Source: Prorocentrum cordatum
Taxonomy: Eukaryota
Direction of reading: 5' to 3'
Length of the DNA stretch: 64,000 bases
Assembly (NCBI GenBank): GCA_963575745.1
Contig: CAUYUJ010000001.1
Coordinates: 806,001-870,000, forward strand
Shown: piece by piece, positions 10,387-60,810 of the stretch
Layout: the number at the start of each line of letters is the position of its first letter
Numbering within the stretch: position 1 is the first letter of the stretch
Notes under the pieces: model-generated
The model's input: only the letters and a program-made list of their open reading frames with translations
Told to the model about the DNA's origin: nothing
Database searches by the model: none
Program-made: the position numbers and the translations under genes

Positions 10387-11236
10387 GGTGTGTGTTTCCG
10401 GGCCATTCGAATTTTGAAATCCGTTCGAAGCCTAAGATTGCTGAAATATTCCGGCATGCGCTCGCGACGACGCGCACGTGTGGATGTCGTATTTTTCGGC
10501 GCAGCCAACTCTTGTAAATTAGCGATGTTTGGTATACGCGTGCGCGCGCATAATTTTTGCAAAAGGTAACGCGGCGAGTCGATATTGGCCTGGTTGGAGC
10601 GATATGAATCTTTGTTTCAGATGAACGATGAGGCAGCAGTATATGCCATATGTAAAGTGCACATCCCCAGACGGGGCGCATAATCCCACCCTCGGCGGTG
10701 TGATAGACCGTCATAATTTAGAATTGGATGGTCCGATTCTTTGAAAACAAAACCTCGGCTGGAGAGCAATCGCTTCAGCTTCGGCGGTGGGAGAGGGCCT
10801 CATGCCCCCACCCTCCGAGTGTGGCCCTGGTTCGACAATGTTGCCTGGCGAGGTATGTGACTTTCATGGCACGGGACACGCATCGTGTCATATTAACGCG
10901 TGCCGTCATTGCGCATGTTGTACGTGTTCGGTTTGTTCTTTAAGCGGCTTGGAAAGGTTTAGCGCGCGCATACACACATTTGTGTGTATATATATACACA
11001 TATATATATATACACATACATGTACGCCCTGAGCTAGGGAACCGTCCCAGAGGACCTCGCAGAAAACCCTGGGAACGCTTGGCACCGCCCGAGAGCTCCC
11101 CGGAAACAAGAAGTCCGGGCCCGGAAGACCGGAAAAACAACCTCATTTCTCAGGTCTGCATGAGCCTTGGGGCTTTCCTCTTCGTGCCAGAGGCACGGTG
11201 ATCTACAATTGTATATATGTACACCCATATACACAC

Positions 11237-11257
11237 CCGTAGCCATGTTCGTTCAAG
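11237..11257 (+). other. Degenerate dinoflagellate spliced-leader relic at the 5' end of LINE-A
   Basis: CCGTAGCCATGTTCGTTCAAG vs DinoSL core CCGTAGCCATTTTGGCTCAAG, 18/21 identical; lies 110 nt upstream of the ORF1 ATG at 11368. Confidence 0.8.
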
Positions 11258-12939: not shown

Positions 12940-15900
12940 CGGCAACGTCGGCCCGGTGATAGCCTCGGCGAACGTCCAGACTCTGAAGCCGCACCAGGAG
13001 GAGAGGAGCTACGCACGGAACAGCATCGACCCGCTCCTGGACAAGGTCGAGGCGCTGGAGTCGCAGTTCGACTCCCATGGGCACGACATCGCGGGCGTCC
13101 AAGAGGGCCGTTCGAAGAGCGAGGGCGTCTTCAACGGCCTGCGCTACCGTCAGTACGCGGCGACCGCCACCAACGATGGCGCCCTTGGCGCGCAGCTGTG
13201 GGTTCATCGACGCGTCCGCGGCCATGCGCTACACTGGACAGCCCTTACACCTCGTCTGCTGTTCGCTGCCTTCGGCGTGCGAACGGCGAGGCGCTGGCGC
13301 CGCTCGTCGTGCGCGTCCCGCCCTCTCTCGCCGACGAGGCCGCGCGTGGCGCGTTCTGGGGCGAGCCGGCCAGCACCTCGCACGGGCTGAAGGAGCGCCA
13401 CGCCCGAGCCCCCCTGCGCGCGGCCGTTGACGCCGACGGACGCCTGGGCTCTGCGCCGCCTCGCCACATCGGCCGCGAGGACGTCGCCCACGAGGGTGAG
13501 AACGGGGCGCGCCTGCGCCTGTACCTCGACGAGTTCGACTTGGCCGTCGTGAGCACGCTCTGGCCGAGTTGCCCGACATGGTGCTCGACACACGGCAAGT
13601 GGCACCGCATTGACTACGTACTCAGTGACTCGCTTGGGCGGGCCGCTGCCCGCCGCGTGGACCTCGACGTGGACCTGGCGCCCAACGCGCACGAGGACCA
13701 CCGCTCCGCCGTCGCGCAGGAGCGCGTCCGCGCTGCCCCGCAGCATCGACGCCCCCAGGCCCGTCGGCCCCTCAGCGCGAACAAGGCGAAGCTGAGCGAC
13801 CCTGGGGCGCGCGTGACACTCCAGCAGCTGGCGCGGGCCTTCGAACGCCCCGAGAGGGCACGGGCTGCGGGCAGCACCGCGCCCCCGGCGGCGCGGGGCG
13901 TGATCGCCCCGCGCCGTCGGAGCATGCACTCTGCCCACCTGGCCGCCCAGCCGCCCCACCTCTGCCGGGCCTTTCGCGCCCGGCAGGCGGCCGCGATGCG
14001 CGGCCAGCGGCGCGGGCGCCACGCGCGCGACGGATGGTTCGAGGCGGGCGACGCCGTGGACTGCACGCGGGCGAGCCCGGCCACCATTCTCTTCGCGCCC
14101 GCGCGGGCACAGGGCCCAGCGCCGTCTGGGGCGCCGACGGCCAGCTCACCGCCAGCGCCGACGCCGCGCTGCAGCGCTGATACGAGCATTACAACGGCGT
14201 GCACAGCGGCGTCGAGATGCCACGCGATGCTGCCGCGCGCCCGCCAGCGCCCCAGCCTCCCGAGCTGGGCCTCGACGCGGGCCCCGTCGCCACCGAGGTC
14301 GCTTTCGGCCTCCCTGGGCGCAACAAGGGCGTGGGCCCCGACCGCGTCGCCGGCGAAGTGCTGTGCGCTGGAGGCGGGGCCGTCGCGGCCAAGCGCGGCG
14401 AGTTGAACTTGGCTGTCGCCGCCTCGGGCCAGCGACCGCTCGAGCGGCAGGGTGGCGACAATGTCGGCGCCTGGAAGCGGAAGGGCGACGCCCGTTCGCG
14501 CGACGCGTTGCGGGGGCTGTTGTTCAGCGACCATGCCTCCAGGCGGGAGGCCCCGATGACCTCCACCATGCTCCTCCGCGCCCTCCACGCGGGCGCCTGG
14601 TTCCGCGCGTCGGGCGGAGAGCGTCGCTTCGGGCCCAGGACGGGCGGGCGCCAGGGCTGCAAGGTCGGCCTCCTCATCTTCAACAACGCGCACTCCGTTC
14701 CCCTCGACATCATCCAGCGGCGGATCCAGCGGGCGGGCTCTGAAGCTCCGCGCGCAGAGCGGGGCGTCCCGGCTGCCGCGGGACGACGCCAACGACGACA
14801 TTCAGCACGTGCTCGACGTCACCTTCGTCGATGACGAGTGCGCCGCGCGAGCCGCGCCTGGTGCGCAGACCCTTCGGGCCGCCGTCGACATCCCGATGGA
14901 GACGCTGACGGGCGTCTTCGCCAACTGCCCTGCAGCTGAGCTGGGAGGCCGGCAAGACGAAGCTCCAGGGCCATGGAGCGGTTGCCGCCCGCGAGACTTT
15001 CCGCCTCCCAAACGGCCAGCTGGGCATGCCGCTCGCGAAGTTCGGACACCTGGTCGTCCTCCGCTTCGTTCGCGAGCACAAGCACCTCGGCTTGCACATC
15101 GACCACGAGGGCGTGGCGACCACCGACATATCTGCCCACGCCCGCAACGCTTTGGCTGCGCACGCTCCTCTGGCACGCAAGCTCTTCGGCTCGAGTCTCG
15201 CGGGCCAGGCGCGCCGTTCTTCGGGGCGCTCGTGGCGTCGAGGGTGCTGCGCAACATGTACATATTCGTGCTGTCGCCTCGAGCTGCCCGGAAGCTGAAT
15301 GGCGCGCGGACGCGAGGCCTGGGTCGCATCGCAGGCCAGATGCGTTTCTCGAGCGATGTGGAGGCGTCTGATCTGAGCGTTCGCCTTTCCCTCGCCATGC
15401 CGTCGATTGACTGCTTGTTGACTGTAGCTAGACAGCAGTACTATGGCCGCGTTGGGCGCGAGCGCCCTCGTCATGAAATCGCCGCATTGCACGCTCTCCC
15501 GCGCGGCCATCCTACACCTTGGGTGGCGGCCGTGCGTCGCGACGTCATCATGATCAAGGCCTTAGGCGTTTTCTCCGACCGCCTTGACTTCGACGCTGGA
15601 GCCGAGGAGTGGGTCGCCAGGATGGCCCACAAGCCGGCTTGGAAGCGAGAAGTAGGCCGAATCTGTTTTTTCGGACTCGTCGCGCGATCGCGTCCTGGCC
15701 GCCGCCGGGTGAGCGGTGTCTTGAGCTCTGTCCTTTCGCTGCCCATCTTGCCCGTGCGCGCATGCCACGCAGAGAGCGCTGGATTCGCGCGTGCGCGCGA
15801 AGCACGGCGTCCGATTTCCTTGCAGGGAGCGGGTGCGGTCTTTCACGTGCCCGTGCTGCTGCGTCGAGTTTCGCACGAGGGTGCGGCTGCTGAGCCACCT

Positions 15901-16099
15901 CGGCGACAAGTGGCGTCCGAGGTGTGGGGGGTTCGTTCTGAAGTACTGCCCTCGCTTGCCTCCTGCCACCGTGGCTGAGCTAGACGCCCAGGACAGAGCT
16001 GAGAGGATGTCTGCACAGCGTGCAGGCCGAAAGCAGGTGCTAGCCGTTGAGCCCGCCCTCCGCGCTGACGGAATACCCGTCGGTGCGCCGCCGAGCTAA
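12940..16099 (+). pseudogene. LINE-A ORF2: APE endonuclease, reverse transcriptase and C-terminal zinc finger; multiple frameshifts and an internal deletion
   Basis: APE: IASANVQTL, DIAGVQEGR, VDADGRLG, GENGARL, PTW...HRIDYVL, DHRSAV. RT: KGVGPDRVAGE, WKRKGD...RGLLFSDHA, GGRQGCKVGLLIFN, TFVDDE (14824-14835), EHKHLG. C-term: CPCCCVEFRTRVRLLSHL. Stop at 16099. Confidence 0.88.
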
Positions 16100-19075: not shown

Positions 19076-20737
19076 GATCCGGATCGCTGATCCGTGCATT
19101 GCGCGCCCCCTCCCCCTCTCGCGCCCCGCTGCCGTGCGCGGCAGGGAGCTCGGGCCGCCTCTCGGCGCGGCGGCCGCGCACGCGCGGGCGCGGGCGTCTC
19201 GGGGTCGAGCACCCTGCCCCCTGGGCCCGCGTCGAGGCCCCAAGACGGGGCCCCAAGAAGGATGCGTGCGGGCATCTTCCAGGGATGGACGCCCGACACT
19301 GGTGCACACCTGTGGTTGGAAGTAGGTATTTTTGGATCCCCGGAGGTCGTAATCTGCCTCTAGCGCCTTCCTACGTCAAGAGTCGACCTGCGTTTGTTGC
19401 GTTCTTGTTATTCTCCGGGCGGGCCCGCACCCAATGTACCTGATCCGCCTTCCTACGTCATGTTATTACCTACTTGTTCCGACGGACGTGTACATATGTT
19501 TCTGTCCTAGGTCAGGCCGTACTGGTAAAACACATGTTGCTTGTCGCAAGTCTCGGTTCGACTGGTCCCACGATCCGCCGAGAGCGGAGCTCGTTCAACA
19601 CTGTACTAATCACTCGGTGTCGGAAATTTTGGCCCAAGTCCCCAAGGAACGATGCTGCCGCATCCGCTTCTCTAAGCCGTGTGCTCGCGCGCTTGGGAGT
19701 CGAGCGGATGATGGGTGCGGGTACGTGCAGACAGGGCGCTGAAGTTAGGACCACGTTGGGCCTCGGGATCCGGAGTGGACCCGGCCTTCGGACGGTTCTG
19801 CCTGTCCAGGTCGGAGAGCTTGACCGAGGCCCGTCGCGGCCAGAGAGCCCCTTCGCTCCTCGCTCGGCACTCCCCATGGCATCACGATGGCCGTATGGTT
19901 TGGCAGAGCTGGCGTGTGTCCTCCCCTAGGCGTCTTGTCCTTTTTCCCCCCCCCCCGCTCTCGTCCCCCCTCCCCCTCCAATCCCTCCTCCTGCTGCTGC
20001 CCCTGCTGCTCTTGGACCTGGACTCTGCCCCTGCTACTCTTGGGCCTGGACTCCGCCCTTTTGCGTTCGGCCGCCCACGGGTCCCTTCTCTCTTCCAGGC
20101 GGCGCGCCGAGGGGGGAAGCGGGCGGGGCTTCTCAGAAGCCCTCGGGCCTTCTGGGGAGCCTTCCATGTCTCCGGCGAAAGCTCAGAAGGAATCTTTGTC
20201 TTGGGGTCCGCCCAGGGATGGCCTGCCCTTGTCGGCTGCGCGGGTCCGAAGGGGGTGCGCAGCACTGGTGCGCGCGGGCATGCGCGGGGCTGCCTAAAGC
20301 GAAAAGGTTAGCTCATCCGACGGCACCGCTCGCTCCCCCCCTTCGACCGGATAACGCAGGGCTACCGCCGAATTGAGCGTCGCGTAATGGGGGGGGCGAT
20401 GGATGGGGGGACAGCAAGGGCTGCAGAAAAGGAGCCCTGCAAGGCCTCTAAAGGGGCTCTTTAGGGCTCACAAGGGGGCCTTTTCGGGCCCGAGAGGTGT
20501 ACCTGCCTCCCTACCCCCACCCCCACCCACCTGTCGCCCCGCCACTGAGCCGAAGAATGACGCACAGCCTCCCGAGAGGAGGCCCGCCCTCCACGCCTTC
20601 CCGCGGGTACTCACGCCGATGCCGTCCAGGACGACCTGCATTACTGCGTGGCAGCTCTGCGGCGCGAGCGGGGCTCCCGAGGGCGGGGGCCCTGGCGGCA
20701 GCGCCGCGGCAAAAGGCCTGTGTTTCGTTGCCCTCCC

Positions 20738-21964
20738 CACTCCTCCTCCTCCTCCTCCTCCTCCTCCTCCTCCTCCTCCTCCTCCTCCTCCTCCTCCTCC
20801 TCCTCCTCCTCCTCCTCCACCCTTCTCACTCCTCCTTTCTCACTCCTTTCACCTCACTCCTCCTCCTCCTCCTTCTCCTCCTCCGCCTCCTCCGCCTCCT
20901 CGTCCTCCTATCGACGTGTACGTATTGTGACCGGCGGTCGAACGACGGTCATCGCTCTACGGACGAGCACGCGCCAACTTGTTGCCCTTTCCGTGGCGTT
21001 CCGCCTTACTGTGGAGAAGGCTTTCCTCTGTCACCCGCAGGCCGGCGATCAGTCCCTTGACCGTCACCCGTAGAGTGGCGATGATCCGCACTGCCGTTGA
21101 GCAGGTCCCTCGGCCACCTGTGGGCCAGCGATCAGTCCTGCTGGGGAGCCAAGCAACCGTCACCCCAACCATCACCCCTAGAGTGCCGATGAGCCCGCGT
21201 TGGAGCAGGGGCCCCTTGTCATCCCTCATGTGGAAGGGTGCCCAGCTGTGGGCTGGCTTCCCCCAGAAACCGCCAGGGTGGCGGTCGGCTATCCTGTGGA
21301 ACAGGTCCCTCTGCTCACCCCACAGCGGAGACTTCGGCGGCAGTGGAGGGGGTCCGCCCCGACCATCCATGGGGGGGTCGACCCGTGTCACCCCTGGGGT
21401 GGCGATCCGACTTGCAATGGCGCAGGTCTTCCCTTGTCAACCCCACGGTGGCGTCCTGGCCTGCTGCAGACCAGATCTCCATGCTGCCCTGCTGCGGAGC
21501 GGGCCCCCCCCCGTCATTTCTAGGATGGCGTTCCTCCCTGCGGTGCAGCAAGCCACCTTGCCGTGTGGCCCCCGGTGAGATGCCCTGGGCCCCCATACAA
21601 GGTTAGGGAACCAGCGTCTGACGCTATTCTGGGGGATGTCAGCCCATCCTCTGATGAGGTGGTGAAACGCGCATCATGACGTATCACTTGCACGGTAGGA
21701 GGCGATAGGGGCCACAGTGAAACACCCCCCGCAAAACCGAATGTGTCGAACAGGGGTGGTTGTCTCGGGGTATGTTGAACACGCATACCATCCACCAACA
21801 GGTGCCAGTGCCAACAACAGTCCTTGCACAGGCTCTGGGACCAGAAGGTTTATAATTCAACCTTCATGAACACCTCTACATTGTTATGCCTACCGTCAAG
21901 GACATTAGCACTACACTGAAATATTACTCCTCCTCTTCTCCTCCACCTCCTCCACCTCCTCCTC

Positions 21965-22028
<64 letters not shown>

Positions 22029-22320
22029 CTCCTCATCCTCCTCCTCCTCCTCCTCCTCCTCCTCCGTCCTCTTCCTGTGACGCTCGAGCTCCCGCTGCGC
22101 CACCAAAGCCAGCACTGCGGAATCACATATCCTGCTGCCTGCGGCAAGCCCCGCCACCGTGCCAGCCCAGCATTCTGGGTGACGACCTTTCAAGGGGGCA
22201 CGGGACGCCATGTGACACCTCGTTTTTCCAGGCTTGGGAGAGCCGTGCTGATGATGATGGCTGATCGATGATGGATGGTGGATGGTGGCTGTAGGTGATG
22301 GTGATGATGATGATGATGAC

Positions 22321-22391
<71 letters not shown>

Positions 22392-22600
22392 GTATGATGA
22401 TTATGATGATGCTGCTGATGATGTCGATGACGATGACGAAGCCGATGATGATGATGGTGATGATGGTAATAGTAATGATGACGATGATGATGACGATGAT
22501 GATGATTATGATGATGCTCATGATGCTGATGCTGATGATTATGATGATAATGATGATGGTAATGGCGATGTGATGGTGATGATGATGATGATGATGTCGT
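20738..22600. repeat. Microsatellite cluster: (CCT)n 20738-20900, (CCT)n 21926-22065, (GAT)n 22250-22600
   Basis: Directly visible trinucleotide tracts. Confidence 0.95.
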
Positions 22601-23185
22601 CGACAAAATGATTTGGGATGAGAGATGTCGGTCTCATGTTATTGATAGGGGCCCGATAGCCCACCCCGCCCAGGAACGCTGCGGTTTCGCCGATGCATCG
22701 TCGATGTGTCGTCGATGTATCGCCGATTCCAGCTCGAGGTTTCTCCCCGTGAGCCAGCCCCCCACCCAAAAAAAACATCGTGCCAGTCAGAGACGTGATC
22801 ATCATGTGCGCGTCTCCAGGTTGAGGCGCTTCGTTTCCCCTCGCGCCGCTGCTAATTGGCCCGATCGGAGACGATGTCCCCCGCTCCCACAACTAGCCGG
22901 AGGTTCCGAGAATGTCATCATAAAAGAGGACTTCGCGACAAAAAGCATGGCGACAACCCTCGGCTCATCTTTCTGCGGCATGGGGCGAGCCCAATATCGA
23001 CCCGCAAAGGGCCCTCGTGGACTGAGGAGGGGGCCGAGAACGCCGGTCCCGTTTCCTTCACGCCCAGATCTAGGAGAAGTTCAGGCAAGGATTTCAGATG
23101 TCCGCCGACATGATCATAATGAGGGGGCCGAATGGTCATTCGCTGTCCCTGGGCGCATAACTGAAGTGAGGTTCCGCGCTGCGGA

Positions 23186-27946: not shown

Positions 27947-28979
27947 TGAGGCAATCGCACTGGGAAAAATACCCTAGCCAAGCACCCTAACAGCAGCAAA
28001 GGTGAAGAGGCAGGTCGAGGAGCAGGTGATCGAGACACGGTCATTTGCACCGTATTCCAAGGATCGTGACCGTCCGGATCGTGGACGTGTGGCACCGCAT
28101 TTTGAAAGCGCCGCCCACAAGTTTCGCATTGGCTGACCTGTTCAGCCTGCGCACCTGTGCGCCCGGACCCCCTACTCGCCGCACTGCTGCCTGCTGCTTG
28201 GGCTGCCACGTGGCGCACAGCCAACGCAACGCTCTCGTCATGAAGGGCTTTCGGTGACGCCCAGCTTGAGCGAGCGTGAGACGGCCTCCCGGGCCTCCGT
28301 CCGGCGTCACACAGACATACTAATGCTATGTGTGCGTCGCCCCCCGGGGGCGACGCGCGCCCCAAGAAGTCTTCTGGTGTACGTAAGCTCCGTGGCGGGC
28401 GCTTGCTGGCCATACTGCTCGGGAACCGATATACTACAAGATGGTCATGCTACATCTTTGGGTCGGACGCGCGCCTCCAAGGAGAACATATAGTGCCAGT
28501 ATGTCCCCGTGCGTCCCATCCGTCGTCAGTTCAGGCAGCAGGAATGCCCCGCAGTTGGCCCAAGACCGAATCCATGCTGCGGTGCCTCGTGCCAGTGGAC
28601 TCTGCCACGGCCTCAGCACCCAGAGGGCCGCCCCGAGCACGGCCCAGCGCCGTGGCGCGACGCGAGCTCTCGGCTCGGCCGACGCCTCTCTCGCCGCAAG
28701 GCCCGCCTGCAGCGAGCCCACGCGGACGCCGCCGCCCAGTCGGCCTCCCCAGAAGGCCGTCAGAACTCCCTCCCCGGAGATCTTGGCGTGGCAATCGGTT
28801 CACAACGGGCTTTTTCGCCCGACTTCGGTCCCCAGGACCCTCACAGATCAGCCTGGGTCGAACAATGAGGCAGAATGATGGGGTCCCGAGCTCGGGCGAT
28901 GATTTTTTGTGGTGTTGCATTTTTTCCCAACGTCGGATCTCAGGATCCGCCGCCGTCTCCGCGCACGGCCGGACCCGGC

Positions 28980-28994
28980 GGTCCCTGCCGACCT
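28980..28994 (+). repeat. Left target-site duplication of LINE-B (15 bp)
   Basis: GGTCCCTGCCGACCT, identical to 35587-35601. Confidence 0.95.
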
Positions 28995-29030
28995 CCGTAG
29001 CCATTTTGGCTCAAGCTGTTTTGGCACGAG
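28994..29030 (+). other. Perfect DinoSL (28994-29015) followed by a 15-nt relict SL (29016-29030)
   Basis: TCCGTAGCCATTTTGGCTCAAG matches DCCGTAGCCATTTTGGCTCAAG at 22/22. The next 15 nt, CTGTTTTGGCACGAG, match CCATTTTGGCTCAAG at 11/15. Confidence 0.95.
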
Positions 29031-29170
29031 GCCTGACCTTACTGGCGTGGGGGAGTCTGCGGCCCCATCTGTGACGCCTCACTGCCTGGTCAGGGAGGCA
29101 TGTTGCTTTGCAGAGCTGGTTTTCCCCAGCTACTGCTGCTTTCTTCTCTCACGGGTTGCGCGCACGGCTG

Positions 29171-30445
29171 ATGGTCCCAGATCCGCCCAAGGGGCCTCCT
29201 CGTCAAGCACGTGACCGCCAGCATTCGCAAAGTGGTTACAAGACGTGCTATGGCAAGAACTCGTGCGGCTACCAGTACAATCTGGTGGAGTGGAGCAGGT
29301 GCTTTCGCTGTAAGAAGTGGATTCGTGATATTGTTGTTCGCGACACCGTCCAGGCTCCCCCGAGACCCTGGTGGAGGACGGGCGAGCAGCAAACACAAGA
29401 TGCATGGCAGCTGGTGGGCAAGAGTGGCAGAGGCCGTAAGGGTGCTTCCGTGCCCGATCAAGATGCTGCTGAGTCCCCAGGCGGAGACGGTGATGAACCT
29501 TCGAGGCCTGGCCCGTGGAATGGCAAGGGTGGCTCGGCCGCTCGGGCCAAAGGGAAAGGCGTTGACAACAGGGCAGCCAAGCAGGAGCACCTGTCGGCCG
29601 CAATCGAGCAGCTCACACTGGCGGGCCTTGGGCCCGAACACCCGCTGGTTGTGGCTGCAAAGGCCCAGATCCCCATCGTATCGGCCACACCCGACGACAA
29701 CCAGGGCCAGATGCCTTGGATGCGGGTGCGGTCACATCAAGACAAGTTGGCTCACTACCAGGGCCAGCTTCAGTCAGCAAAGTCCACCGAGGCCTCGATC
29801 ACGCAGAAGATGGAGGAGCTCGAGCAGGATTTGGCGGAGTGCGTGGAGTCTCAGCAGAAGACGGCCGAGTCCATCAAGCGGGAGGAGGAGGAGCTGCAGC
29901 GGCTACATCGCCGTGCTGTCCTTCAACCTGTGGGCGCTGATGGAAAGTCGGCCATCTCTGGCTTGGTTGAGACGCTGTTTGGCCATCTTCCTGCTGGGTT
30001 CAAGTCGGCCAAGGCGGCCCAGTTCCAGTCCGTGGTCGACCTCCTGGGCGACCTGTCCGCGGCGGGGCCGCAGTTTCAGCGGGAACAGGAGGAGCGCCAA
30101 CGGCAGGCGGCCGAGGCAGCGGCTCAGAGGGCGGCTGCTGGAGGCGATGCAGGCGATATTGGGGCGACTTCGACGGCCGTCGATTCCAGGGTGGCCGAGG
30201 ACTGCAAGCAGCAGCTCACCGAGCTCATGCAGGGCGGCAAGGCGGGGCAGTACGAGGGCCTCTTCAAGACGATGCTCGAGTTCCTGGAGAACCCCACGGC
30301 CCTGGCTAAGCGACCCAGACGTGACCCCCCAGCCGCTGCGGCGGCTGCCGCGCATGATGTTCATCAGGTTCCAGGCGCTGTGGCTGGCCAAGGCGTGGAC
30401 GTGGATATCTCCGCAGCAGCTAGGGCTGGACCACAGGGGGGGTAA
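29171..30445 (+). CDS. LINE-B ORF1: intact frame with N-terminal C4 zinc finger and central coiled coil
   Basis: ATG 29171 to TAA 30445, uninterrupted. Contains KTCYGKNSCGYQYNLVEWSRCFRCKKW and a heptad-like stretch ITQKMEELEQDLAECVESQQKTAESIKREEEELQRL. Confidence 0.8.
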   Translation: MVPDPPKGPPRQARDRQHSQSGYKTCYGKNSCGYQYNLVEWSRCFRCKKWIRDIVVRDTVQAPPRPWWRTGEQQTQDAWQLVGKSGRGRKGASVPDQDAAESPGGDGDEPSRPGPWNGKGGSAARAKGKGVDNRAAKQEHLSAAIEQLTLAGLGPEHPLVVAAKAQIPIVSATPDDNQGQMPWMRVRSHQDKLAHYQGQLQSAKSTEASITQKMEELEQDLAECVESQQKTAESIKREEEELQRLHRRAVLQPVGADGKSAISGLVETLFGHLPAGFKSAKAAQFQSVVDLLGDLSAAGPQFQREQEERQRQAAEAAAQRAAAGGDAGDIGATSTAVDSRVAEDCKQQLTELMQGGKAGQYEGLFKTMLEFLENPTALAKRPRRDPPAAAAAAAHDVHQVPGAVAGQGVDVDISAAARAGPQGG

Positions 30446-33400
30446 CCTGATCAGCCAGAAGTCTGAGACGACGCGGCGCTGTCCTTCGAGATCCTGTGCT
30501 GAGTCGTTTCCAAGTTCACGTTCACCTGTTGCTTTGGCGGGCACGGGAGGCAGGTCCGCCAGGACCGCGACCGCTTGGGAGGAGGTCGTGGGGAAGCAGG
30601 GTGTCCAGATTTGCAGCGAAGCTGGTCCCTTGCGAGGGGGACTGGGGACTCGTGCTCGCCAGCCTGGCGTTTCTCCCCAGGTTGATTCTCTCGGTTCGGC
30701 ACCTCCAGCGGAGGGCCATGTTTCTGCCAAGCCTGTTCGTCATAGGCGTCCTGAGGTCTGCAGGATCTGTTCGTCTAATATTACTTCGTGGGGAGTGGAG
30801 TGCGACAAGGGCTCCAGAGTCCCCCGCAGGCCGCTCCTTGAGGTCATTGACGCCGTGGAGGCAGACCTGTCCTTGTTCCAGGAGCATCACCAGTCAGAGT
30901 TTCAGCTGGCAGGCGTCCAGCACGCTTTGCAGAAGGCAGGGCTGAACTCGTTACTCTCCCCAGCGGCGCCGCCGGGCCGTTCAGAGTCTGGCACGTCGGG
31001 AGGAGTTGGCTTGGCTACACCGAAGCTCTGGGGCCTCAGGGGCCTTGACGCCCTTTCTCCTGGGGTCGCTTTACCTCCTGATCATCGGTTTCGGTTAGGG
31101 CTCTGGAGCGGTCTGTGCACAGGGGGAGTTGTGGTCGGGTCGGTGTAATTGCACACGGGGACCGGCTGCAGGGGTCAGAACCTCACCCTCCTCCACAACA
31201 TTGGGGAAGCTCTTCGTGCGTATGGGATGCCGTTCATACTGGGTGGAGATGTTCAGTTCCCTGGCGAGCAGCTTATTGAGTCTGGGTGGCTAGGGGACCT
31301 CCAGGCTGACGTTGTGTTCGATGGTTCTCAGTGGACGTGCCAACTTGGAACGTCTCGATCATCTATTGATTACTTTGTTGTGTCGAATGTACTGAAGCCT
31401 TTCGTTGACCGTTGCTGCGTGGCGACATGGTCGACTTGCACGAGGCCGCACCGCCCAGTTGTGCTCACAGTCAGTGGCAGCCCCAGGCAGGTGGCGGCAC
31501 CCAGGCTGAAGAAACCATCGGCGCTCCCGCTATTTCGTCCTATCGGATGCGACCCCAGGCCACTGGATTGGGATGATCTCTTGGAGGTTGTCAAAGAAGG
31601 CAAGTGTTCAAAGGATATGTTGGATACTGTCACCTCCCAGTGGGCTCAGAGGGCTGAACTCACGTTAACCCGAGTTCCCCAAGTGGAAGGCGATCCACGT
31701 TACCGAGGACGAGGAAGCCCCCCCAAGGTGGTCCAGGCCCCCCTCCTAGGCCCGCCTGCGTCCACTCACCCTCGCGCCATCGGCGAAGGTAGGATGTGGC
31801 GGGTTTTTGAGAGGCGGCTCCAGGACATTCTGTTTCTCTGGCATGGGCCACGGCCCACCTGGGGGGGGTTGCGTCAAGCTGGGCGGATTCTCAGGAAGTT
31901 GGTGAACTATGCGTCCCCGTTCATTGATTGCAAGCACTGGGAGTCCTGGAGGCTTAGGACTTTGGCCGTCAACCCTGCAGCGGCCTCGGAGCTTATCGAG
32001 TTGATTTGGCAGGTCCGCAAGCGGGCCCAGGAGCATGAGCATCACGCGGCCTCGGAGAGGGCCAGGGCTTGGAGGAGCTGGGTATCTGAGGCTCTTACTG
32101 GAGGGGCCCGACTTGGACACGGGCATTCTAAAGAGGTTCCCAAATGGGCTACGTGTGGGTTATCACAGCTCTCAGGGCCCAACGGTGTTCCTTTGGGTGT
32201 CTTGGGAGAAGCTGAAGCTCGAGCTCAAAGTTGGCACAAACACTGGGGAGTTGGTCAAGTTTTTCCTGGTCCCGATTTCAGCTGGTGCGAAGATGAACCC
32301 GAGCTCGAACCGCCGTCTCACGAGGAGCTGGCTGCCCTGATCCGTTCGTACAGTACGCACACGGCAGTTGGGGCATGTGGGTTTCATCCTCGTCATTGGT
32401 CGTGTCTTGATGAAGGTGCCGTCGCTGTATTCCTGTGCATCTGGGAGCAGATGCAGCGCCTTTTCCATGTGCCCAGGTGCTGGGCACTGCTGCTCATCGC
32501 TCTGCTGCCCAAGCCACCGCCAGACGGATGGGGATCGGCCTATTGGTATCTTCCCGTCCCCCCTCAGGATGTGGCCCAGATGGGCCCGCTGGAAAGTCGC
32601 TGGCCCCTGGGAGATCGTTCACCCTCGGAGTTTTTGGTTTGGCGATTCGGGTGCGTCCTGTGATATTTGCGTGTGGAAGCAGAGTTTCAAGGCGGAGCTG
32701 GCTCGAGACCAGGGCAAGGCAGCAGGGTCTAAGCTCTTAGACCTGGTCAAGGCATATGAGCATGTACCTCATCATGTGCTCGCTGCTGCCGCCCGTAGAC
32801 ATCAGCTCTCTGGGAAAACGTTACCTTTCCTCCTGGCCACTTACAGCTTGGACAGGATGGTGTTATTTGAGAGGATTGCGACCGATGTGGTATCGACCAA
32901 GCGGACGATCGTCGCAGGTTGCAGTTGTGCTACGTCGTTGTTGCGTATCGTGCTCCTTTCCCCTGCTGGTGTCGTTGTTCAGCGGCATGCGTCCGTCGAT
33001 CTAGCGATTGTGGCTGATGACTTGCAACTTCAGAGGGTTTGGGATGCTTGGGAAGTTGCTCGTGATCTAAAAGGTGCTGAGGACCTCCTCACCTCTGAGC
33101 TGCGTCAGATCGGGCTCAGTATTTCGCTCCCTAAGAAGCACCAGACGGTCGTCGGCCAGAAACTTCGGTGCGTCGCTCGCAAGGTGGACCCGTCTTCGGC
33201 CAAGTTCTTGACCAGATCGGTGCGTAACTTGGGACTAGATTTCGGGGGTGGCCATCGCGTGTTGCACGCTGTTCGTGCTAAGCGCTTGGGCAAGATGGCT
33301 TACAGGATCCCTAGGTATAAGCGGTTGGCTAAAGCTGGGGGGCAAAACGATCAAACTGGTCCAGGCGGGCCTCAAGCCTGGCATGCTGTGGGGTGTCGGA

Positions 33401-35509
33401 GTGCATGGCATCAGTCATACTCATCTATTGCGGGCTCGGCAGCTTGCACGTGCTGGTTTTTGTGCACAGGCACACTGGCAGATCTCTGTCGCTCGATCTC
33501 ATGATCGCAGGCCGCCAGGTCGACCCAGCCTATGAGTGCAATCGTGTGCCTATTTTCTTCTGGATGCGTGCTCTCTGGGATGCATGGGCGGTGAGATCCG
33601 ACATGGCGCGTCTTCTGAGCGGGGCTTGGGCTCGTCTGCCGGCGCTTCCCGAGAATAAGGTTTGGTCCGACATCCGTGGACCTGCCTCGGCCCTTGCGGG
33701 CACGACGATGAGGATCGGTTGGAAGTTTTAAAACCCGTTCCGCTGGATGACCCATAGGGGTCCCGTGTTTATCGAGAAAATGTCGCCGAGGGATGTTGGT
33801 CGGTTGGCTGATGAGGCCACCGAGCGTTGGATTTGGCAACAGGTTCTGGCGAAGCATGCGTCATGGGCCTCGTTGTGTCCCCATCCTCCTCTCCTCGAGC
33901 CTCTGAGGGCCCTCGTCCTTCCTGCCTCGCTCAAAGGCCCCGACTGGACCCCCAAGCATCAAGGGCTCCCCAAGTGCCTTTTGCGGGAGGTGTTTGGTCT
34001 CAAGAGAGGCTATATGAAGCTGGTGGAGCTATCAATCCAGAGTGCCTGGCGTGCAGGAGCGCAGGCTCCACCTGGCATCGTTTCTACGACTGCCCTGTGC
34101 ACGCCGAGTATCGTCGGGATTTCAAGGCAGGTTTTGAGCTGGCCAGTCAGATGCTGGTGTTAGCTAAGACGGCTGCTGACCGCTCACTGCTTTGGACCCG
34201 CTTTCTTGTACCTGATCCGTCCTGGCTGTTTCCGAGCCCCTGCCTCGAGGAGCGTGCGGTGTGGACCCTGCGTCCGCCCGATCTGCTGCTCGACGTGCAT
34301 GTGTTTGGAGATGGCTCGGGAGTGCATGGGCAGTTCGGCCGTCTCAGGAGATGTGGGTGGGGGCTGCGCCCTCTCGACTCCCAGTGGAAAGAGGTTGCGA
34401 GATTGCACGGGCCGCTGCCTAGTTTATGCCAAACAGTGCCCGCAGCGGAGCTTTTCAGTTTCCTCATGGCTCTCCGCTACATGGGGGCGCAGATGATTTT
34501 TTTTACTGACTGCAAGCCTCTCGTAGATGTTTGGCGCCAGGGGTCTGGAGCTGGCGCTGATGCCAACGACCCCATGGCCTACCTATGGAGGGAGGTCTGG
34601 AGGTTGGTGGCTGTCCGTGGGGTGGAGGCGGCGGAGGTGACTCATGTCAAGGCACACTCGCCTGTCTCCGTCATCGCGGATGGTGCGATCACGGCTTGGC
34701 AGCGTTTTGGCAACGCTCAGGCCGACCAGTCAGCTAAGCGAGGGGCTGCGTTGTATCCTGATGCGAAGATGTTGCGCGAAGCTCACCGTGCCTCGCGTCG
34801 CGCTGCCCAGATGGTTGCCCAGTTTTGTACGCGTGTCGCGGCGAGGATTGGTGTTGTCACCCCGCTGGACGCGCAGGCTCAGGCCCTGGGTAGGGCCATC
34901 GGCACCATCGAGGGTGGTTTCGGACCGCCGAGGCCGCACTCGCGGTATGATCCTGCGGTCACGTTTTGTGGCCGACGCTATCGATGCATGGTGTGTCTTC
35001 GCTCGGCTAAAGGCCGTCTCACACTGCGCAAGCTCAAGTGCCAGGACAGAGCTGGGATGCACTCGCTGCATAGGGCGGGGCCAGTGTTGTTCTGTTATTT
35101 GTGCGAAGCCTACTCCGAAAAACGCAGCCAGGGTCTCTCGGACGAGTGCCTGACGAGTCGGCGCAGGCTTGGCACGCAAGTGAGGGACTCTCGGTTTTAT
35201 CGCCTTCAGAATTTGCTGAAGGGTCGCCACCCCAACAAGGCGAGCTTGTTTCTGGGGCCTCCAATTTTGTTGAGGAAGAGGAGGCTCGCAGAGATGGCTA
35301 GCATGCCGCCACTTCCCTCGCTCCCTCTGACCTCTGGGGTTGGGTGTGGGTCGGACGTGGGGGTGGGGTGGTCGGGGCAGGAGCATCTCTCTCCTCCTGT
35401 GTCCCAGGCTGTTTCGGCCTTGTGGGAGGACTTTCAGGGCCTCCCTTTTGCCAGCGACTCGGATGACGACGACGACCTTTCCCGCGATCTCCGGGGCTGG
35501 GTCGAATAG
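30430..35509 (+). pseudogene. LINE-B ORF2: APE endonuclease, RT, CCHC knuckle, RNase H and Cys-rich tail; two in-frame stops and about four frameshifts
   Basis: APE: SSNITSW, LFQEHH, GSV*LHTG (stop 31146-48), ILGGDVQ, SSIDYFVV, PHRPVVL. RT: GACGFHP, LLPKP..DRPIGIF, LLDLVKAYEHV, IVAGCSCAT, IVADDL (33007-33024), RNLGLD. CCHC: CLACRSAGSTWHRFYDCP. RNase H: VFGDGSG, TVPAAEL, FFTDCK, HVKAH, GNAQADQSAKRG. Frameshifts near 32525, 33340, 33460 and 33980; stop at 33729. The 5' start is approximate. Confidence 0.92.
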
Positions 35510-35586
35510 CGTCTCCATCGCTGGCCGACAATTTTTTTCAAACAGGCTAGTACGCGTGCGGCTGGTCTTTGTCAGTGCAAAAAAAA

Positions 35587-35601
35587 GGTCCCTGCCGACC
35601 T
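35587..35601 (+). repeat. Right target-site duplication of LINE-B
   Basis: GGTCCCTGCCGACCT immediately follows the A8 tail. Confidence 0.95.
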
Positions 35602-36631
35602 TCGCCAGAGGCGGCTTCGCCTCTGGGATCAGCTCGCGGTCGCCGCCCCGGGCACGTGCCGGACGGCCCTGCGCACCCTCGCCGGCGCCTGCCCACGTCC
35701 TGCCGCATGCGCACGGGACACCCCGACCTTGCGTGCCGTTGGAGCGGCGAGGCCGGCACGGACCAGATTTCGCACCACATGCAATGTCGCGGCGGCTGGT
35801 GGTGCGTCCGCGTTGCTTCGCGCACCGTCGCCCGTGCGTGCCTCCTGCATGCACCGCCTGGGGCTGGGCTTGCTGGAGGACTACGTCGAGGATCCGCGCG
35901 AGAACGGCCTTCGCCCTCGCGATTCGCTGCGGCAGGTTCGCGCGGCGTTAGCGCGCCCGCGACGCCGGCGAAGGCGGTCAAGGTTGAATTCCGCGACGCG
36001 GAAGCACCGATGGACACAGTAATGCCAGTGGACACGACTGAATTCAACCTTGAACGATCGGGGCCGCGATCGATTCCAGATGACAGGATCGACGCGGTGT
36101 CGAAAACTTGTGCGCGCGACGACGCCGCACGAACCTACCGCACCACACGCACAACCGCATGCGGCACCGCCCCGGGCCGCCGCAGCCAGGCCCAGCGGTG
36201 GCCCAGGCACTGGCGCGCGCTGCTGCCCCCCACGTCCAGGTGCCCCCGCTCCCCACGCGGGCCCTGCGCGAGCCGCCCGTCCAACCGGGGCCGCGGCGCA
36301 TGACCCGCTTCCGGCGCGAGCCGCCCAGCTCGCCCGACAATCCCCACGAAGAGTTCCTAATCCGGGCGGCGCCCGCGGAGACCTGCAGTCATAATGCCCG
36401 ACTCTTGCGGAGCCACGGTAGCTCGGTTCTGCCCCTTCCGTCCATCATCCTTCCTGTCATTCCTTCCCCTCCACCCCTTCATGCCGCGTTCCTCTTCCTC
36501 CTCCTTCTCCTCCTCCTCCTCCTCCTCATCCTTCTGGTACTCCTCCTCCTCCTCCTCCTCCTCCTCCTCCTCCTCCTCCTCCTCTCGTCGTCCTCCTCCT
36601 CCTCCTCCTCTTCCTCCTCTCTTCCTCCTCC

Positions 36632-42186: not shown

Positions 42187-42393
42187 GGAGGAGGATGAGG
42201 ATGAGGATGAGGGAGGATGAGGATGAGGATGAGGATGAGGATGAGGATGAGGATGAGGATGAGGATGAGGATGAGGATGAGGATGAGGATGAGGATGAGG
42301 ATGAGGATGAGGATGAGGATGAGGATGAGGATGAGGATGAGGATGACGATGACGATGTTGATGATGATGGTGATGATGATGATGATGAGGATG

Positions 42394-42424
<31 letters not shown>

Positions 42425-42607
42425 GGACGGTGGTGTTCCGATGATGATGGTGTCCCGATGATGCTGATGTTGATGATTATGATGGTGACGATGACGGTGT
42501 CCCGATGATGATTGTGATGATGATGATGATGATGGCCATGGTGGTGATGATGATGGCACCCCGATGATGATGATGATGATGATCCTGATGATGTTGATGA
42601 TACTGAT

Positions 42608-42661
<54 letters not shown>

Positions 42662-42913
42662 GTGCCCTGGTGATGATGATGATGATGATGATGATGATGA
42701 GGTTGATGATGCTGTTGATGATGATGGTGATGATGATGGTGTCCCGATGATGATGATGATGTTGATGCTGATGATGACGATGATGGTGTCCCGATGATGA
42801 TGATGACGATGATAATGATGTTGATGACGAGGATGATGACGAGGTGATGATGATGATTATGATGATGGTGGTCCGATGATGATGATGCTGATGTTGATCA
42901 TGATGGTGTCCCC

Positions 42914-42949
<36 letters not shown>

Positions 42950-43610
42950 GTGGTGACGATGATGATGATGGTGAAAACGATGATGGTGTCCCGATGGTGA
43001 TGATGTTGATGATGTTGCTGATGATGATGATGATGATGATGGTGTCCCGATGACGATGATGTTGATGATGCTGTTCATGATGATGGTGATGATGAGATGG
43101 TGAGGATGATGATGGTGGTGGTGTTCCGATGATGATGATGGTGTGCCGATGATGATGATGATGTTGATGATGATGATGGTGACGATGATGGTGTCCCGAT
43201 GATGATGGTGATGCTGGTGATGATGATGATGGTGATGAGGTGATGATGATGATGATGGTGTCCCGATGATGATGATGATGACGATGACGATGATGATGAT
43301 GATGATGCTGATGATGATGATGCTGATGACGTTGATGACGATGCTGTTGATGATGATGACGTTGATTGTGAGATCGATTGTGATACCGATAGTGAGATTC
43401 ATAGTGGGACCGAATGTGAGATAGATTGTGAGATCGATTGTGCGATCGATGGTGAGATCGATTGCGAGATCGATAGTCAGATCGATTGTGGGATCGATCG
43501 AATGAAATAGATCGAGTGCGATCGATTGTGAGATCGATCGGGTGAGATCGATCGAGCGAGACCGATAGTGGTATCGATAGTGAGATCGATAGTCAGACCG
43601 ATCGAGTGAG
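42120..43610. repeat. Compound (GAT)/(GAGGAT)n tract punctuated by GGTGTCCCGAT, followed by a GATCGATTGTGA-type ~12-bp repeat (43365-43610)
   Basis: Directly visible. Confidence 0.92.
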
Positions 43611-43774: not shown

Positions 43775-45322
43775 CAGTTGTGCGAACCGCGATGTGGCCA
43801 TCGCTTTCGGTGTGGCATCCTATGGGGCCACGAAACGAGTCAGGAGTGTGCCGAAATGGGTTGGGGACCGCATGCGAACTGCGCCACGGAGGCACTCGGT
43901 GGAGCTCCCTCGTGTGGCACGAAGCGTGTGAGGGGCGTGCCGAAACGGGCGTGAAGCCCACATGCGAAATGCGCCACGGAGGCACTCGGTGGAGGTCCCT
44001 ATGGGGCCACAAAACGTGTGAGGAGCGTGCTGGAATGAGTGGGGAACCGCATGCGAACTGCGCGACGGAGGCACTCGGTGGAGCTCCCTATCGGGCCACG
44101 AAACGTATGAGGAGTGTGCCGAAACGAGTGCGACGCCCACATGCGAACTGCGCTACGGCACTCGGTGGAGCTGCTTATGGGGCCACGAAACGCGTAAGGG
44201 GTGTGCCGAAACAGGCGTGACGCACACATGCGGAATGCGCAACGGGGGCCTTAGATGGAGCGCCCGATGGGGCCACGAAACGTGTGAGGGGTGTGCCGAC
44301 ACGGGAGTGACGCCCACATGCGAATTGCGCCACGGAGGCACTCGGTGCAGCTCCCTATGGGGCCACGAAACGTGTGAGGGGTGTGCCGACACGGGAGTGA
44401 CGCCCACATGCGAATTGCGCCACGAGGGCACTCCGTGCAGGCACCCTGCGGAGCTCCTTATGGGACCATGAAACGCATGAGGAGTGTGCCGAAACAGGCG
44501 GGACGCCCACATTCGAACCGCGCCACGGAGGCACCCTGCGGAGCTCTGTATGGGGCCACGAAACGAGTCAGGTGTGTGCCGGAGTGGGTGGGGAGCCGCA
44601 TGCGAATTGCGCCACGGAGGCACTCGGTGGCCACAAAACGTGTCAGGAATGTGCCGGAGTGGGTGGGCAACCGCATGCGAACTGCGCCACGGAGACACTC
44701 GGTGGAGCTCCCTATGAGGCCACGAAACGCGTGAGGGGTGCGCCGAAACGGGGGTGACACTCACATGCGTACTGCGCCAGGGCGCTCGGTGCAGCTCCCG
44801 ATTGTGCCACGAAGCGTGTGAGGGGCGCGCCGGCACGCGAGTGACGCCCACATGCGAACTGCGCCACGGAGGCACTCGGTGCAGCTCCCTCTGGGGCCAC
44901 GAAACGTGTGAGGGGTGTGCCGAAACAGGCGTGACGCTCACATGCGTACTGCGCCAGGGCGCTCGGTGCAGCTCCCGATTGTGCCACGAAGCGTGTGAGT
45001 GGTGTGCCGAAACTGGCGCGACGCACACATTCGAACTGCGCCACGGAGGCACTCGGTGGAGCTGCCTATGGGGCCACGAAACGTGTGAGGGGTGTGCCGA
45101 CATGGGCGATGATGGTGGTGATGATGATGTTGAAGAAGAAGAAGAAAAAGAAGAAGAAGAAGAAGAAGGTGATGATGAAGATGATAATGCTGGTGCTGCT
45201 AACGATGATGATGAAGATGCTGATGATAACGATGCTTGTGACGATAGCGGTGATGATGGTGATGGTGATGGTGATGTAGATGATAATGACAGTGTTGATG
45301 ATGATGATGATGACGATGATGG

Positions 45323-45366
<44 letters not shown>

Positions 45367-45620
45367 ATGATGAGGAGGAGGATGAGGATGAGGATGAGGA
45401 TGAGGACAAGGATGATGATGAGGATGAGGATGATGATGCTGATGATGATGTTGATGGTGCTCATGATGATGGTGGTGGTAATGGTGATGGCGATGAGGAT
45501 GAGGATGAGGATGAGGGTGATGCTGCTTATGCTGAAGACGATGAAGATGACGACCACTCTAACGATGACGATAGTTATGATGGAGAAGACGACGACGATG
45601 ATGATGACGATGATGATGAC

Positions 45621-45681
<61 letters not shown>

Positions 45682-45952
45682 GTGATGGTGATGGTGATGC
45701 TGATGATCGTCGAGATGGTCATGATGGTAATGATGATAGTGATGATGATGACCATGCTGATGCTGATGATGAGGGTGCCGGTGCTGATGGTGATGCTGCT
45801 TATGATGATGACGGCGTGGCGACGACGACGACGATGGTCATGATGTTGATGATGGTGTTGTTGATGTTGATGACGACGACGACGACGACGATGATGATGA
45901 TAATGATGATAATGATGATCGTGATCGCGATGATCATGATGGTCATGCTGAT

Positions 45953-53922: not shown

Positions 53923-55490
<1,568 letters not shown>

Positions 55491-56965
55491 GTCCTCTGTT
55501 GTTTCCCGGAGTCTGGCGCCAGGAGCTCACGCATGGCCATGCCTGATCAGATGGCGCCGTGCACAAAAGCAAGATGGCCAAGACGGGAGCGCGAGTCTAG
55601 CTGGACTGGGCACCACTGTCAGCTGCACGCTTCAAATACAAATATGATCGGCAGCACGCTTCAAGAAAGTGTCATCGGCTGTACGCTTTATGGAGCAAGC
55701 TCAGGGACAGCACGCTTGCTTGTTTGAGTTGCGTCGTCGTTGTTGCGGAATTGTTGGCCCCACGGACTCGTGCGTCGCAGCCGCAGTTCGGAGCAGCTTG
55801 CTCGAAGTCCAAAGCGCACCGCCTCTCTTGCTCCTGAGCTGACTGACATGATCACTGCAAGGATTATCTGAGTCACTCCGCTTGCCCAACCCGTGAACTT
55901 GGCAAAGAGGATGAGCGCCTCTTTATTGTTTGCACGGTTGCCTGTCTCGCTGCTGCCCCAGAGTTTGCCCAGTGAAAGGTTGGAGAAACAAAAGGTTGAG
56001 CCAGGCCCTGCGGCAGCCGCGAGACTGGCGACCGCTGCGTGGGGCGAGCCAAGAAGTGAATCGTGCGCTGATCCTCTCTTGTCCAGCTCAAGTTTTCTCG
56101 TGGTCACTCCATTTGGGATGCAACTCCAAGGGGTAAATTCAGCATCGCGGCTTGTATACCCGCGGGCTGGCCTAATCCGGCATTATCCCGCTGATCTCGG
56201 CTGGATCCCGTTGAATTCGGCTTCATCCTGTGCTTAATCCAGGCTGGTCGGGCTCAATCGTCTTCTCAATCAGGCCCAGCAGCCCCTATGGGGATTGCCC
56301 ACGAGTTGCCTCCTAGTCGTGCTCATTCCGTCTGCCTCCCCCCCCGATGCCCCTTTCCCCCCCGTCGCCCAGAACACAGCCAGAAGCCGTGGCGCCTCAG
56401 GTGCGACGTGGCCACGGATGCCGGCCTGAGGTCCTTGGCTCGACTCTGGGGAGCCATCGGTTGCGCGCAACAGGAGTGATTCTTTGCTGGAGTGGCCTCT
56501 GGTACGGGCTTCACCTGCGCGCTTGGATATCGGAGGGGGAAAGGGGACCGACACTGCTACGTTTCCCTCGTTTTCGCTTTTTAGTGGTTTTTGAGTGGCC
56601 CTTGTCGCCATGGCTGGATTCTCCTCGACATTCTGATCCGAACGCACCCCAGGAGAGGTCTGCGGAGTAGCGGTATCGATATCTTTCGGTTTCTCCAGGA
56701 GTTGGTCTCCCCGCGGCCCTCTGAAGCCGCGCACCACAGGTCACTCTTGCCCAGCGCCTTCAGATCCGCATTGAAAAGAAGCATGCGGCATCGTAGAAGA
56801 CCATAGTTGGAGCTCCAGCCCTTTCTCTATGCGCCATTTTGTCGAGCCAGATCGATCTGTGAGGGTCCAAGGGCCCGAAAGCAAGCGAATACGCCCGGTG
56901 CGAACAACAATGCAGCGCCCTGATCTGAGGGCAGGGCGGGGGAGCAGAGGCGGGAGAACCGAGAG

Positions 56966-60779: not shown

Positions 60780-60810
<31 letters not shown>

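Follow-up and report, generated by a model that had tools for sequence, protein, structure and literature searches.

We describe a retrotransposon that appears to have entered the genome of the dinoflagellate Prorocentrum cordatum together with the host's spliced leader (SL). The DNA analysed, hereafter the window, is a 64,000-nt stretch of contig CAUYUJ010000001.1 (assembly GCA_963575745.1, positions 806,001 to 870,000 of the forward strand; 60.9% G+C, zero N). The element, which we call E1, is a long interspersed nuclear element (LINE) unit of ~6.6 kb at 28995-35586 (+), headed by a perfect copy of the dinoflagellate SL (DinoSL); a second element, E2, occupies 11237-~16150 (+). From the layout of E1 and of related LINEs in metagenomes, two conclusions are well supported at the sequence level: that E1 was copied, as far as the 5′ end, from a polyadenylated LINE RNA bearing the SL, and that the use of SL-capped LINE mRNA as template is general in this group of LINEs rather than an accident. 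On balance, we hold it probable that such a template, combined with a replication cycle based on the SL, is the full explanation of these insertions.

A spliced leader inside the target-site duplication

E1 lies between two copies of GGTCCCTGCCGACCT, at 28980-28994 and at 35587-35601 (+, the latter followed by TCGCCAGAGG), which form its target-site duplication (TSD). Behind the 5′ copy stands the DinoSL core CCGTAGCCATTTTGGCTCAAG (28995-29015, +), which is perfect at 21/21 positions and contains AG dinucleotides at 28999-29000 and 29014-29015. Directly 5′ of the 3′ copy stands an A8 tail (35579-35586, +). The first-pass annotation of this DNA had described a unit that starts with a perfect SL, ends in A8 and is bracketed by an exact 15-bp TSD. 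Both termini and both TSD copies are confirmed by direct reading, although a TSD of 14 bp is equally possible: T28994 fits either the end of the duplication or base 1 of the SL (D = T), in which case it completes the 22-nt leader.

In the window, the TSD 15-mer has 2 exact copies and 4 matches at ≤2 mismatches, a number reached in 0/100 shuffles, and the 21-nt DinoSL occurs once exactly and once with 3 mismatches (11237-11257), against a shuffle mean of 0.00. No direct repeat other than the TSD was found in 28900-35700 with a 12-nt seed; because the TSD is the sole direct-repeat family there, E1 is without long terminal repeats (LTRs). The empty site rebuilt from the TSD lacks the SL. Enclosed by the TSD and missing from the empty site, the SL must have come in with E1, just as the annotation had argued.

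The same observations bear on whether the SL was already present. LINEs specific for SL genes exist in trypanosomatids and nematodes, and an element of the SLACS/CZAR/CRE/NeSL kind might have inserted beside a resident SL; an assembly chimera might likewise have joined the two. But the SL is inside the TSD, the empty site has none, and the flanks of all SL heads that we describe below differ, so the annotation was right to set this layout apart from that of SLACS, CZAR and NeSL. Both junctions of E1, moreover, fit one 15-bp duplication, which a chimera would not make. We consider either explanation scarcely credible. The position of the SL within the TSD, the A8 tail and the LINE domains described next instead uphold the proposal that an SL-capped LINE RNA was reverse-transcribed to its end.

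E1 as a decayed APE-type LINE

A 5′ untranslated region (UTR) of 155 nt (29016-29170, +) separates the SL from the ATG of the first open reading frame (ORF), matching the ~155 nt estimated earlier. ORF1 (29171-30445, +; 424 codons) is open and displays, by eye, a Cys4 zinc-finger-like motif near its N-terminus and a coiled-coil-like middle; it matches no Pfam family below E 0.01. ORF2 is recognizable as a putative endonuclease region of the APE/Exo_endo_phos type (30840-31475, +), a reverse transcriptase (RT) region (32530-33351, +), an RNase H region (34295-34747, +) and a C-terminal Cys/His-rich region with the stop codon (34748-35509, +), beyond which the 3′ UTR runs from 35510 to 35578 (+). 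The frame is interrupted by an in-frame TAA in the endonuclease region (31146-31148, +), by a frameshift just upstream of the RT region, in a G run near 32529-32534, and by a decayed linker (33337-34000, +) that contains a stop at 33729-33731 and frameshifts at G6 (33337-33342), close to 33530 and within 33815-34000. The earlier description of E1 as a full-length LINE therefore holds for its extent but not for its intactness.

In E1, Pfam RVT_1 reaches E 0.0031 and 17.7 bits (cutoff 29.6) and RNase_H E 9e-5 and 23.1 bits (cutoff 25.8); the endonuclease piece matches no Pfam family and nothing relevant by PDB phmmer, its catalytic motifs being read by eye only. Searching for homologues gave three long proteins, P0001-P0003 (38, 30 and 25% identity). 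Aligned with E1, they have in common with it the endonuclease C-terminus, the RT, the RNase H and the C-terminal Cys/His motif. With this alignment we found 70 metagenome loci encoding related RTs, and from 22 long ORF2s among them we built a family hidden Markov model (HMM).

The family HMM matches the pieces of E1 collinearly (E 2.6e-53 for the RT piece, then 3.1e-46, 2.4e-38 and 5.2e-17), taking up in order the end of the 29172-frame and the 31149-, 32341-, 33239-, 33333-, 33732- and 33815-frames. The endonuclease region falls at HMM positions 667-765 and 767 onward, and the RNase H region is matched as well. Comparison of the E1 pieces with the relatives by blastp is also collinear, with the RT piece 30-34% identical to the relatives' ORF2. 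Intact relatives supply the domain matches at higher scores: Exo_endo_phos (cutoff 24.5) scores 25.2 bits in L011 and 27.2 in L030, above the cutoff, and 24.2 in L008 and 22.6 in L034, below it, while RVT_1 scores 40.9 bits in L034, above its cutoff of 29.6. The E1 endonuclease piece is collinear with the part of the relatives' ORF2 that matches Exo_endo_phos. By these sequence comparisons, E1 is a decayed copy from a group of APE-type LINEs that also encode an RNase H domain.

Contigs from DNA sequencing runs (X1 and X3) were aligned piecewise along the element. The family is multicopy in X1, where 1485 contig pieces cover the whole of E1: 107 at ≥99% identity, 318 at 95-99%, 453 at 90-95% and 607 below 90%. 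Two of the E1 frameshifts lie in runs of G4 (32529-32534) and G6 (33337-33342) that are one base shorter in some of the X1 contigs, and these frameshifts may be copy-specific slippage or homopolymer assembly errors. In an X1 contig of depth 79.5, sequence like the ORF1 zinc-finger region is joined to the SL 21-mer (29015>29237) and then to sequence like that from 30007 onward (29293>30007); it may represent an abundant shorter or diverged SL-headed relative. Within the window, neither tblastn, blastn nor a repeat finder detected a second E1 copy. Among viral contigs, ORF1 gave just one 14-residue zinc-finger match (L001) and the RT gave zero.

Leader-derived heads in related LINEs

If SL-bearing mRNA is the usual template of this group, other members should also start at an SL. 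Among the 70 metagenome loci, 23 were informative, reaching 3 kb or more beyond the RT match on its upstream side. Five of these are headed by a full SL in the orientation of the RT, perfect in L008, L011 and L034, with 1 mismatch in L020 and with a 1-nt insertion in L064; it lies 3.2-4.4 kb upstream of the RT. The base before it is T in four loci and A in one. In L008, L011 and L034 the SL is followed by an ORF1 that is open and by an ORF2 whose frame spans 2261-2348 codons. Relic leaders follow the SL in L034 (13/15) and in L020, in which a perfect 15/15 relic is accompanied by a further degenerate one.

Eight more loci begin with a 13-nt SL remnant, made up of an invariant AGGTTGGCTC and then A/G-A-G/A, at the position given for each (L005:100, L010:307, L015:143, L021:72, L025:78, L030:127, L036:267 and L045:182); compared with the AGGTTGGCTCAAG form of the leader, it is identical to the 3′ part at 11/13 positions. 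These eight form one clade of the RT tree, clade B, in which the upstream sequence is unalignable and a GC-rich UTR of ~150 nt is conserved. In L047 a degenerate relic lies at nt 17-31, behind a (CA)n flank. Six contigs (L006, L012, L016, L026, L029 and L044) begin inside a long ORF, so that the element's end is not reached.

In a strand control over 320,507 nt, exact TTGGCTCAAG has 11 copies on the RT strand against none on the opposite one, and 10/11 copies sit in the first 310 nt of their contig. The flanks of the 14 SL-derived heads in the relatives are all different. The check proposed in the first-pass annotation, whether other copies start at the SL beside differing flanks, came out positive for the relatives, with 5 full and 8 remnant heads in 23 loci in addition to E2.

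Some features of these heads stand apart from the count. L008, L011 and L034, which come from one metagenome assembly, have contig ends 75-76 nt 5′ of the SL with unrelated flanks; the ends may be assembly overhang at the edge of a collapsed repeat, in which case the boundary of that repeat would coincide exactly with the SL. Several heads adjoin (CA)n, (CG/CA)n or TA/CA-rich microsatellites (L030:1-126, L047:1-16, L064:1-127 and, in the window, 11207-11236), which hints at an endonuclease target preference, E1's own target being unlike these. Partial SL-like motifs also stand on the RT strand 3′ of the LINE coding sequence in L002 (3598-3617, AGTTTGGCTCAAG) and L035 (5145-5159, CCATTTTGGCGCAAG), and may be heads of neighbouring SL-tagged insertions.

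A proposed cycle of leader addition

These layouts are consistent with the following cycle. E1 was probably inserted by target-primed reverse transcription (TPRT) of a trans-spliced, polyadenylated LINE mRNA, the RT copying the RNA to its first base, so that the DNA copy starts with the 22-nt leader inside a 14-15-bp TSD. The resident copy would then be transcribed from outside, within long host transcription units, and host trans-splicing would add a fresh, capped SL at an AG of the inherited SL. With the internal AG as acceptor (28999-29000; GTAG|CC), a 15-nt relic would remain, giving SL|CCATTTTGGCTCAAG-CTGTTTT; with the terminal AG (29014-29015; CAAG|), the SL would be replaced exactly, giving SL|CTGTTTTGG. 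Either way, SL addition would set and cap the 5′ end without any upstream promoter borne by the element.

The head of E1 itself may bear a trace of such a history. Immediately behind the SL, CTGTTTTGGCACGAG (29016-29030, +) is identical at 11/15 positions to the truncated relic CCATTTTGGCTCAAG and stands at exactly the expected offset. Matches of at least 11/15 to CCATTTTGGCTCAAG occur at 20 of 127,972 window positions on both strands (1.6e-4 per position), and contigs of X3 that resemble an SL followed by a relic can be aligned over 28994-29030 at 3-5 differences. The E1 head suggests that leader addition and reverse transcription took place at least twice in this lineage.

We also considered that the SL was acquired by a template switch, the RT jumping from the LINE RNA to the SL RNA or an SL-bearing mRNA in the manner of U6/L1 chimeras. 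Template jumping is established for LINE RTs, but E1 and four metagenome heads have an exact junction and contain the 22-nt exon only, and the sequence behind the SL differs per lineage, leaving no common SL-RNA intron. The relics begin at the known internal AG, which is the signature of splicing, and the same pattern recurs in many lineages. A template switch is accordingly very improbable as the source of these heads.

Renewal or inheritance of the leader

We next asked whether the SL is renewed or merely handed down, using an RT tree of 42 rows, from which L041 and L059, because of stops, and loci with short matches were excluded. Full-SL heads occur in at least four separate lineages of this tree: L008 with L011, L034, L020, and the long branches of L064 and E1. 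For the remnant heads one change suffices, the long branches making placement uncertain. Over the 100 nt past the SL, the seven full heads have a mean likeness of 0.53, compared with 0.54 when shuffled, and yet the SL itself is perfect (21/21) in E1, L008, L011 and L034. Such perfection would mean that the SL is either re-added from host SL RNA in each generation or strongly selected. The relic arrays of E1, L034 and L020 would directly record re-addition at the internal AG of an inherited SL, and a single SL with no relic, as in L008 and L011, is what exact replacement at the terminal AG would be expected to produce.

These data allow a comparison with simple inheritance, in which the SL was captured once in an ancestor and transcription now starts from the first base of the genomic SL. 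The 18/21 match in E2 and the 1-nt insertion in L064 do show that inserted SLs decay like ordinary sequence, and the clade-B remnant is passed on together with its UTR. Inheritance fares badly, however, with the four 21/21 leaders, which persist despite long RT branches and UTRs at the shuffled level, and the SL-plus-relic arrays demand a second addition. Purifying selection could mimic renewal but would itself imply function. We regard inheritance without renewal as improbable, if less so than a template switch.

A further alternative makes the SL a passive tag: the LINE would have its own promoter, either downstream of +1 or in a relic TTTT box, and the SL would be a mere by-product of universal trans-splicing. 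All nuclear dinoflagellate mRNAs are reported to be SL trans-spliced in the accessible parts of three papers (PMC5585692, PMC6050394, PMC7245778), and the portion of Song et al. 2017 available (PMC5585692) proposes the relic TTT(T/G) as a promoter motif. The clade-B remnant with its conserved UTR also resembles a fixed, inherited 5′ end. On the other side, an mRNA cannot carry a promoter that lies upstream of the acceptor, and with an acceptor 3′ of the inherited SL each cycle would leave the element shorter. Because of this shortening, steady-state families with exactly one perfect SL (L008, L011) need splicing at, or transcription from, the inherited SL, and the relic arrays show that the internal AG of an inherited SL was used. 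We judge a passive tag unlikely, while taking it seriously as a contender.

A 5′ ribozyme would offer the LINE another means of defining its end. No hepatitis delta virus (HDV)-like ribozyme or other Rfam family was detected up to E 1 at the E1 and E2 heads (window 10500-36500) or at the 8 clade-B heads, and the fold of the E1 5′ UTR is not exceptional (z = -0.61). A ribozyme of an undescribed type may be present at these heads. In the clade-B UTR, just 1 of 30 predicted pairs has a double change, so there is as yet no case for a structured RNA.

Several observations weigh against this explanation as a whole. The clade-B 13-nt remnant and conserved UTR fit a fixed, inherited 5′ end better than renewal; this head could reflect a fixed 5′ end with an internal promoter or RNA element, or a leader incompletely copied by the RT. 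Three of the 23 informative loci (L051, L065 and L069) have no SL-like sequence. TSDs were not found in the 4 SL-headed metagenome contigs tested, which may be multi-copy collapses, and A runs of at least 6 stand behind the long ORF in just 7/21 loci. The metagenome loci count as dinoflagellate solely by virtue of their DinoSL. E1 itself is defective, with 2 in-frame stops and about 4 frameshifts in ORF2; no flanked second copy of its own family was found in the window, and the exact 26-nt SL/relic junction has 0 occurrences in the metagenome contigs. Near E1 no recognizable host gene orients host transcription, the 46 long ORFs of the window giving 1 weak Pfam match (Nop14, 22.6 bits, probably low complexity). 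Trans-splicing of the LINE, its choice of acceptor and its read-through precursors are all inferred from DNA. The annotation's proposal that the SL is added anew in each cycle is thus sustained indirectly, by perfect SLs ahead of unalignable UTRs, by their spread over diverged lineages and by the SL-plus-relic arrays, but does not extend readily to the clade-B heads, which look fixed.

A second SL-headed element in the window

At 11237-11257 lies the window's one further SL-like sequence, which matches the leader at 18/21 positions on the same strand as E1 and heads E2. An ATG follows at 11377, 119 nt past the SL, and opens an ORF1 with a zinc-finger region (Vps36-NZF-N, E 0.011) and then a coiled coil, with a frameshift. 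In later frames, endonuclease-like and RT-like motifs can be read by eye, and a C2H2 finger lies at 15725-16099. E2 has no A tail; its flanks are TA/CA-rich simple sequence on both sides, with a possible short TSD, ATATACA(C/T)A.

BLAST to E1, Pfam RT and endonuclease models, the homologue search, PDB and the family HMM gave no match that would identify E2 as a LINE. Its endonuclease-like stretch falls in Exo_endo_phos_2 clusters of the ESM-Atlas with a score of 0.93, which we treat as a lead only. From this lead and the motifs read by eye, we describe E2 as LINE-like: an older, second element headed by an SL. Screens that call retrogenes by an upstream DinoSL would collect LINE copies such as these, as both SL matches in the 64-kb window are of this kind.

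Surroundings of E1

About 500 bp 5′ of E1, at 28287-28573 of the window, the summed X1 contig depth is 2093, against 2.5-17 in adjoining bins, and this interval is therefore another high-copy repeat. The window is also rich in long tri- and dinucleotide arrays, including (GAT)n, (CCT)n/(GGA)n, (GAGGAT)n and ~2 kb of (TG)n, with simple-repeat arrays at 1900-2050, 20700-22650, 42200-43300, 45000-45700, 53700-55700 and 58350-61100.

Relation to known systems

Every LINE faces the classic problem of regenerating its 5′ end, since the copied transcript cannot include a promoter that lies upstream of it. Internal promoters and 5′ ribozymes are the two general answers known. HDV-like ribozymes cut LINE 5′ ends from co-transcripts in R2, RTE and L1Tc. 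The E1 group would resemble these elements in carrying no upstream promoter and in obtaining its 5′ end, as we propose for E1, by processing of a longer, host-driven transcript. It differs in having no Rfam ribozyme; processing would instead fall to host SL trans-splicing, which would also provide a cap, and the processing site, the AG of the inherited SL, would be regenerated by the process itself.

L1-type LINEs use an internal promoter in the 5′ UTR. Like L1 and L1Tc, E1 has two ORFs, a putative APE endonuclease with an RT, a TSD and an A tail, and, as for L1Tc, its host genome is transcribed polycistronically and uses SL trans-splicing. The Pr77 promoter of trypanosomatid L1Tc/ingi, according to the accessible text of two papers, gives unspliced transcripts (PMC1874656, PMC8190864). 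L1Tc thereby avoids the SL, whereas the E1 group carries it.

SL-associated LINEs of another kind, SLACS, CZAR, CRE and NeSL, insert at a fixed site in SL RNA genes. They share with E1 a tie to spliced-leader sequence, but E1 sits in an unrelated target, with its SL inside the TSD and none in the empty site. A selfish element with the host's leader has been described outside retrotransposons as well: Levin et al. (2017), as related in PMC9651163, described a DinoSL at the 5′ end of a transcript from a +ssRNA virus of dinoflagellates, and PMC9651163 discusses it as mimicry or as an aid to translation. That element is an RNA virus and not a retrotransposon, and has no DNA-level cycle.

The closest parallel lies in the host's own genes. 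Slamovits and Keeling reportedly described SL-tagged retrogenes, or 'mRNA recycling', in dinoflagellates in 2008. As far as the accessible text of four papers goes, DinoSL trans-splicing and relic leaders as marks of mRNA recycling are well established, and retrogenes make up ~22-23% of genes in two Symbiodiniaceae (PMC5585692, PMC6050394, PMC12014239, PMC7245778). In retrogenes as in E1, the DNA copy of a mature mRNA keeps the DinoSL. Re-expression of a retrogene adds an SL and leaves CCATTTTGGCTCAAG; L034 and L020, and probably E1 with its 11/15 match, have the same SL-plus-relic layout. The difference is that E1 would recycle the mRNA of the retrotransposon itself, with the hallmarks of TPRT, namely a 14-15-bp TSD and an A tail.

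The first-pass annotation knew of no description of this strategy. We likewise found none, either of LINE copies that start with an SL inside the TSD or of trans-splicing as a 5′-end strategy for LINEs, in a literature search whose scope left out subscription papers, some supplements and one 2026 preprint. There is, however, partial precedent in the gene-ontology enrichment reported by Song et al. 2017 (PMC5585692), who, in the text accessible, found 'RNA-dependent DNA replication' enriched among DinoSL-relict genes and suggested retrotransposons as a driver of retroposition. What appears to be new is therefore not the SL-tagged retrogene, already well known, but the SL-headed LINE copy.

Implications for LINEs and dinoflagellate genomes

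The enzyme behind SL-tagged retroposition is called unknown in the parts of the literature accessible, with LTR elements favoured or retrotransposition held to be separate (PMC6050394, 10.1101/783902). In the available text, Song et al. 2018 treat the type of retroposition element as unknown and favour Ty1/copia, and a preprint regards retroposition and retrotransposition as independent processes (10.1101/783902). With its TPRT hallmarks and its SL inside the TSD, E1 offers direct evidence at the DNA level of a LINE RT copying an SL-capped mRNA end to end, which makes an E1-type RT a concrete candidate for this enzyme; the same RT might then also produce SL-tagged retrogenes.

We therefore advance, tentatively and as somewhat less than an even chance, a broader reading of these sequences: that this LINE group has exchanged its internal promoter or ribozyme for SL trans-splicing, and that the same RT is the engine of the retrogenes. 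A sense copy within a host transcription unit would be excised, capped and made translatable without a promoter, and the SL in each insertion would carry the AG for the next SL addition. If this is true, SL trans-splicing would be a third answer to the LINE 5′-end problem, one suited to genomes with few promoters and long co-transcribed arrays. The same RT would, in addition, be the sought engine of SL-tagged retrogenes, which amount to about a fifth of dinoflagellate genes, and the finding would thus bear both on transposon biology and on the evolution of dinoflagellate genomes.

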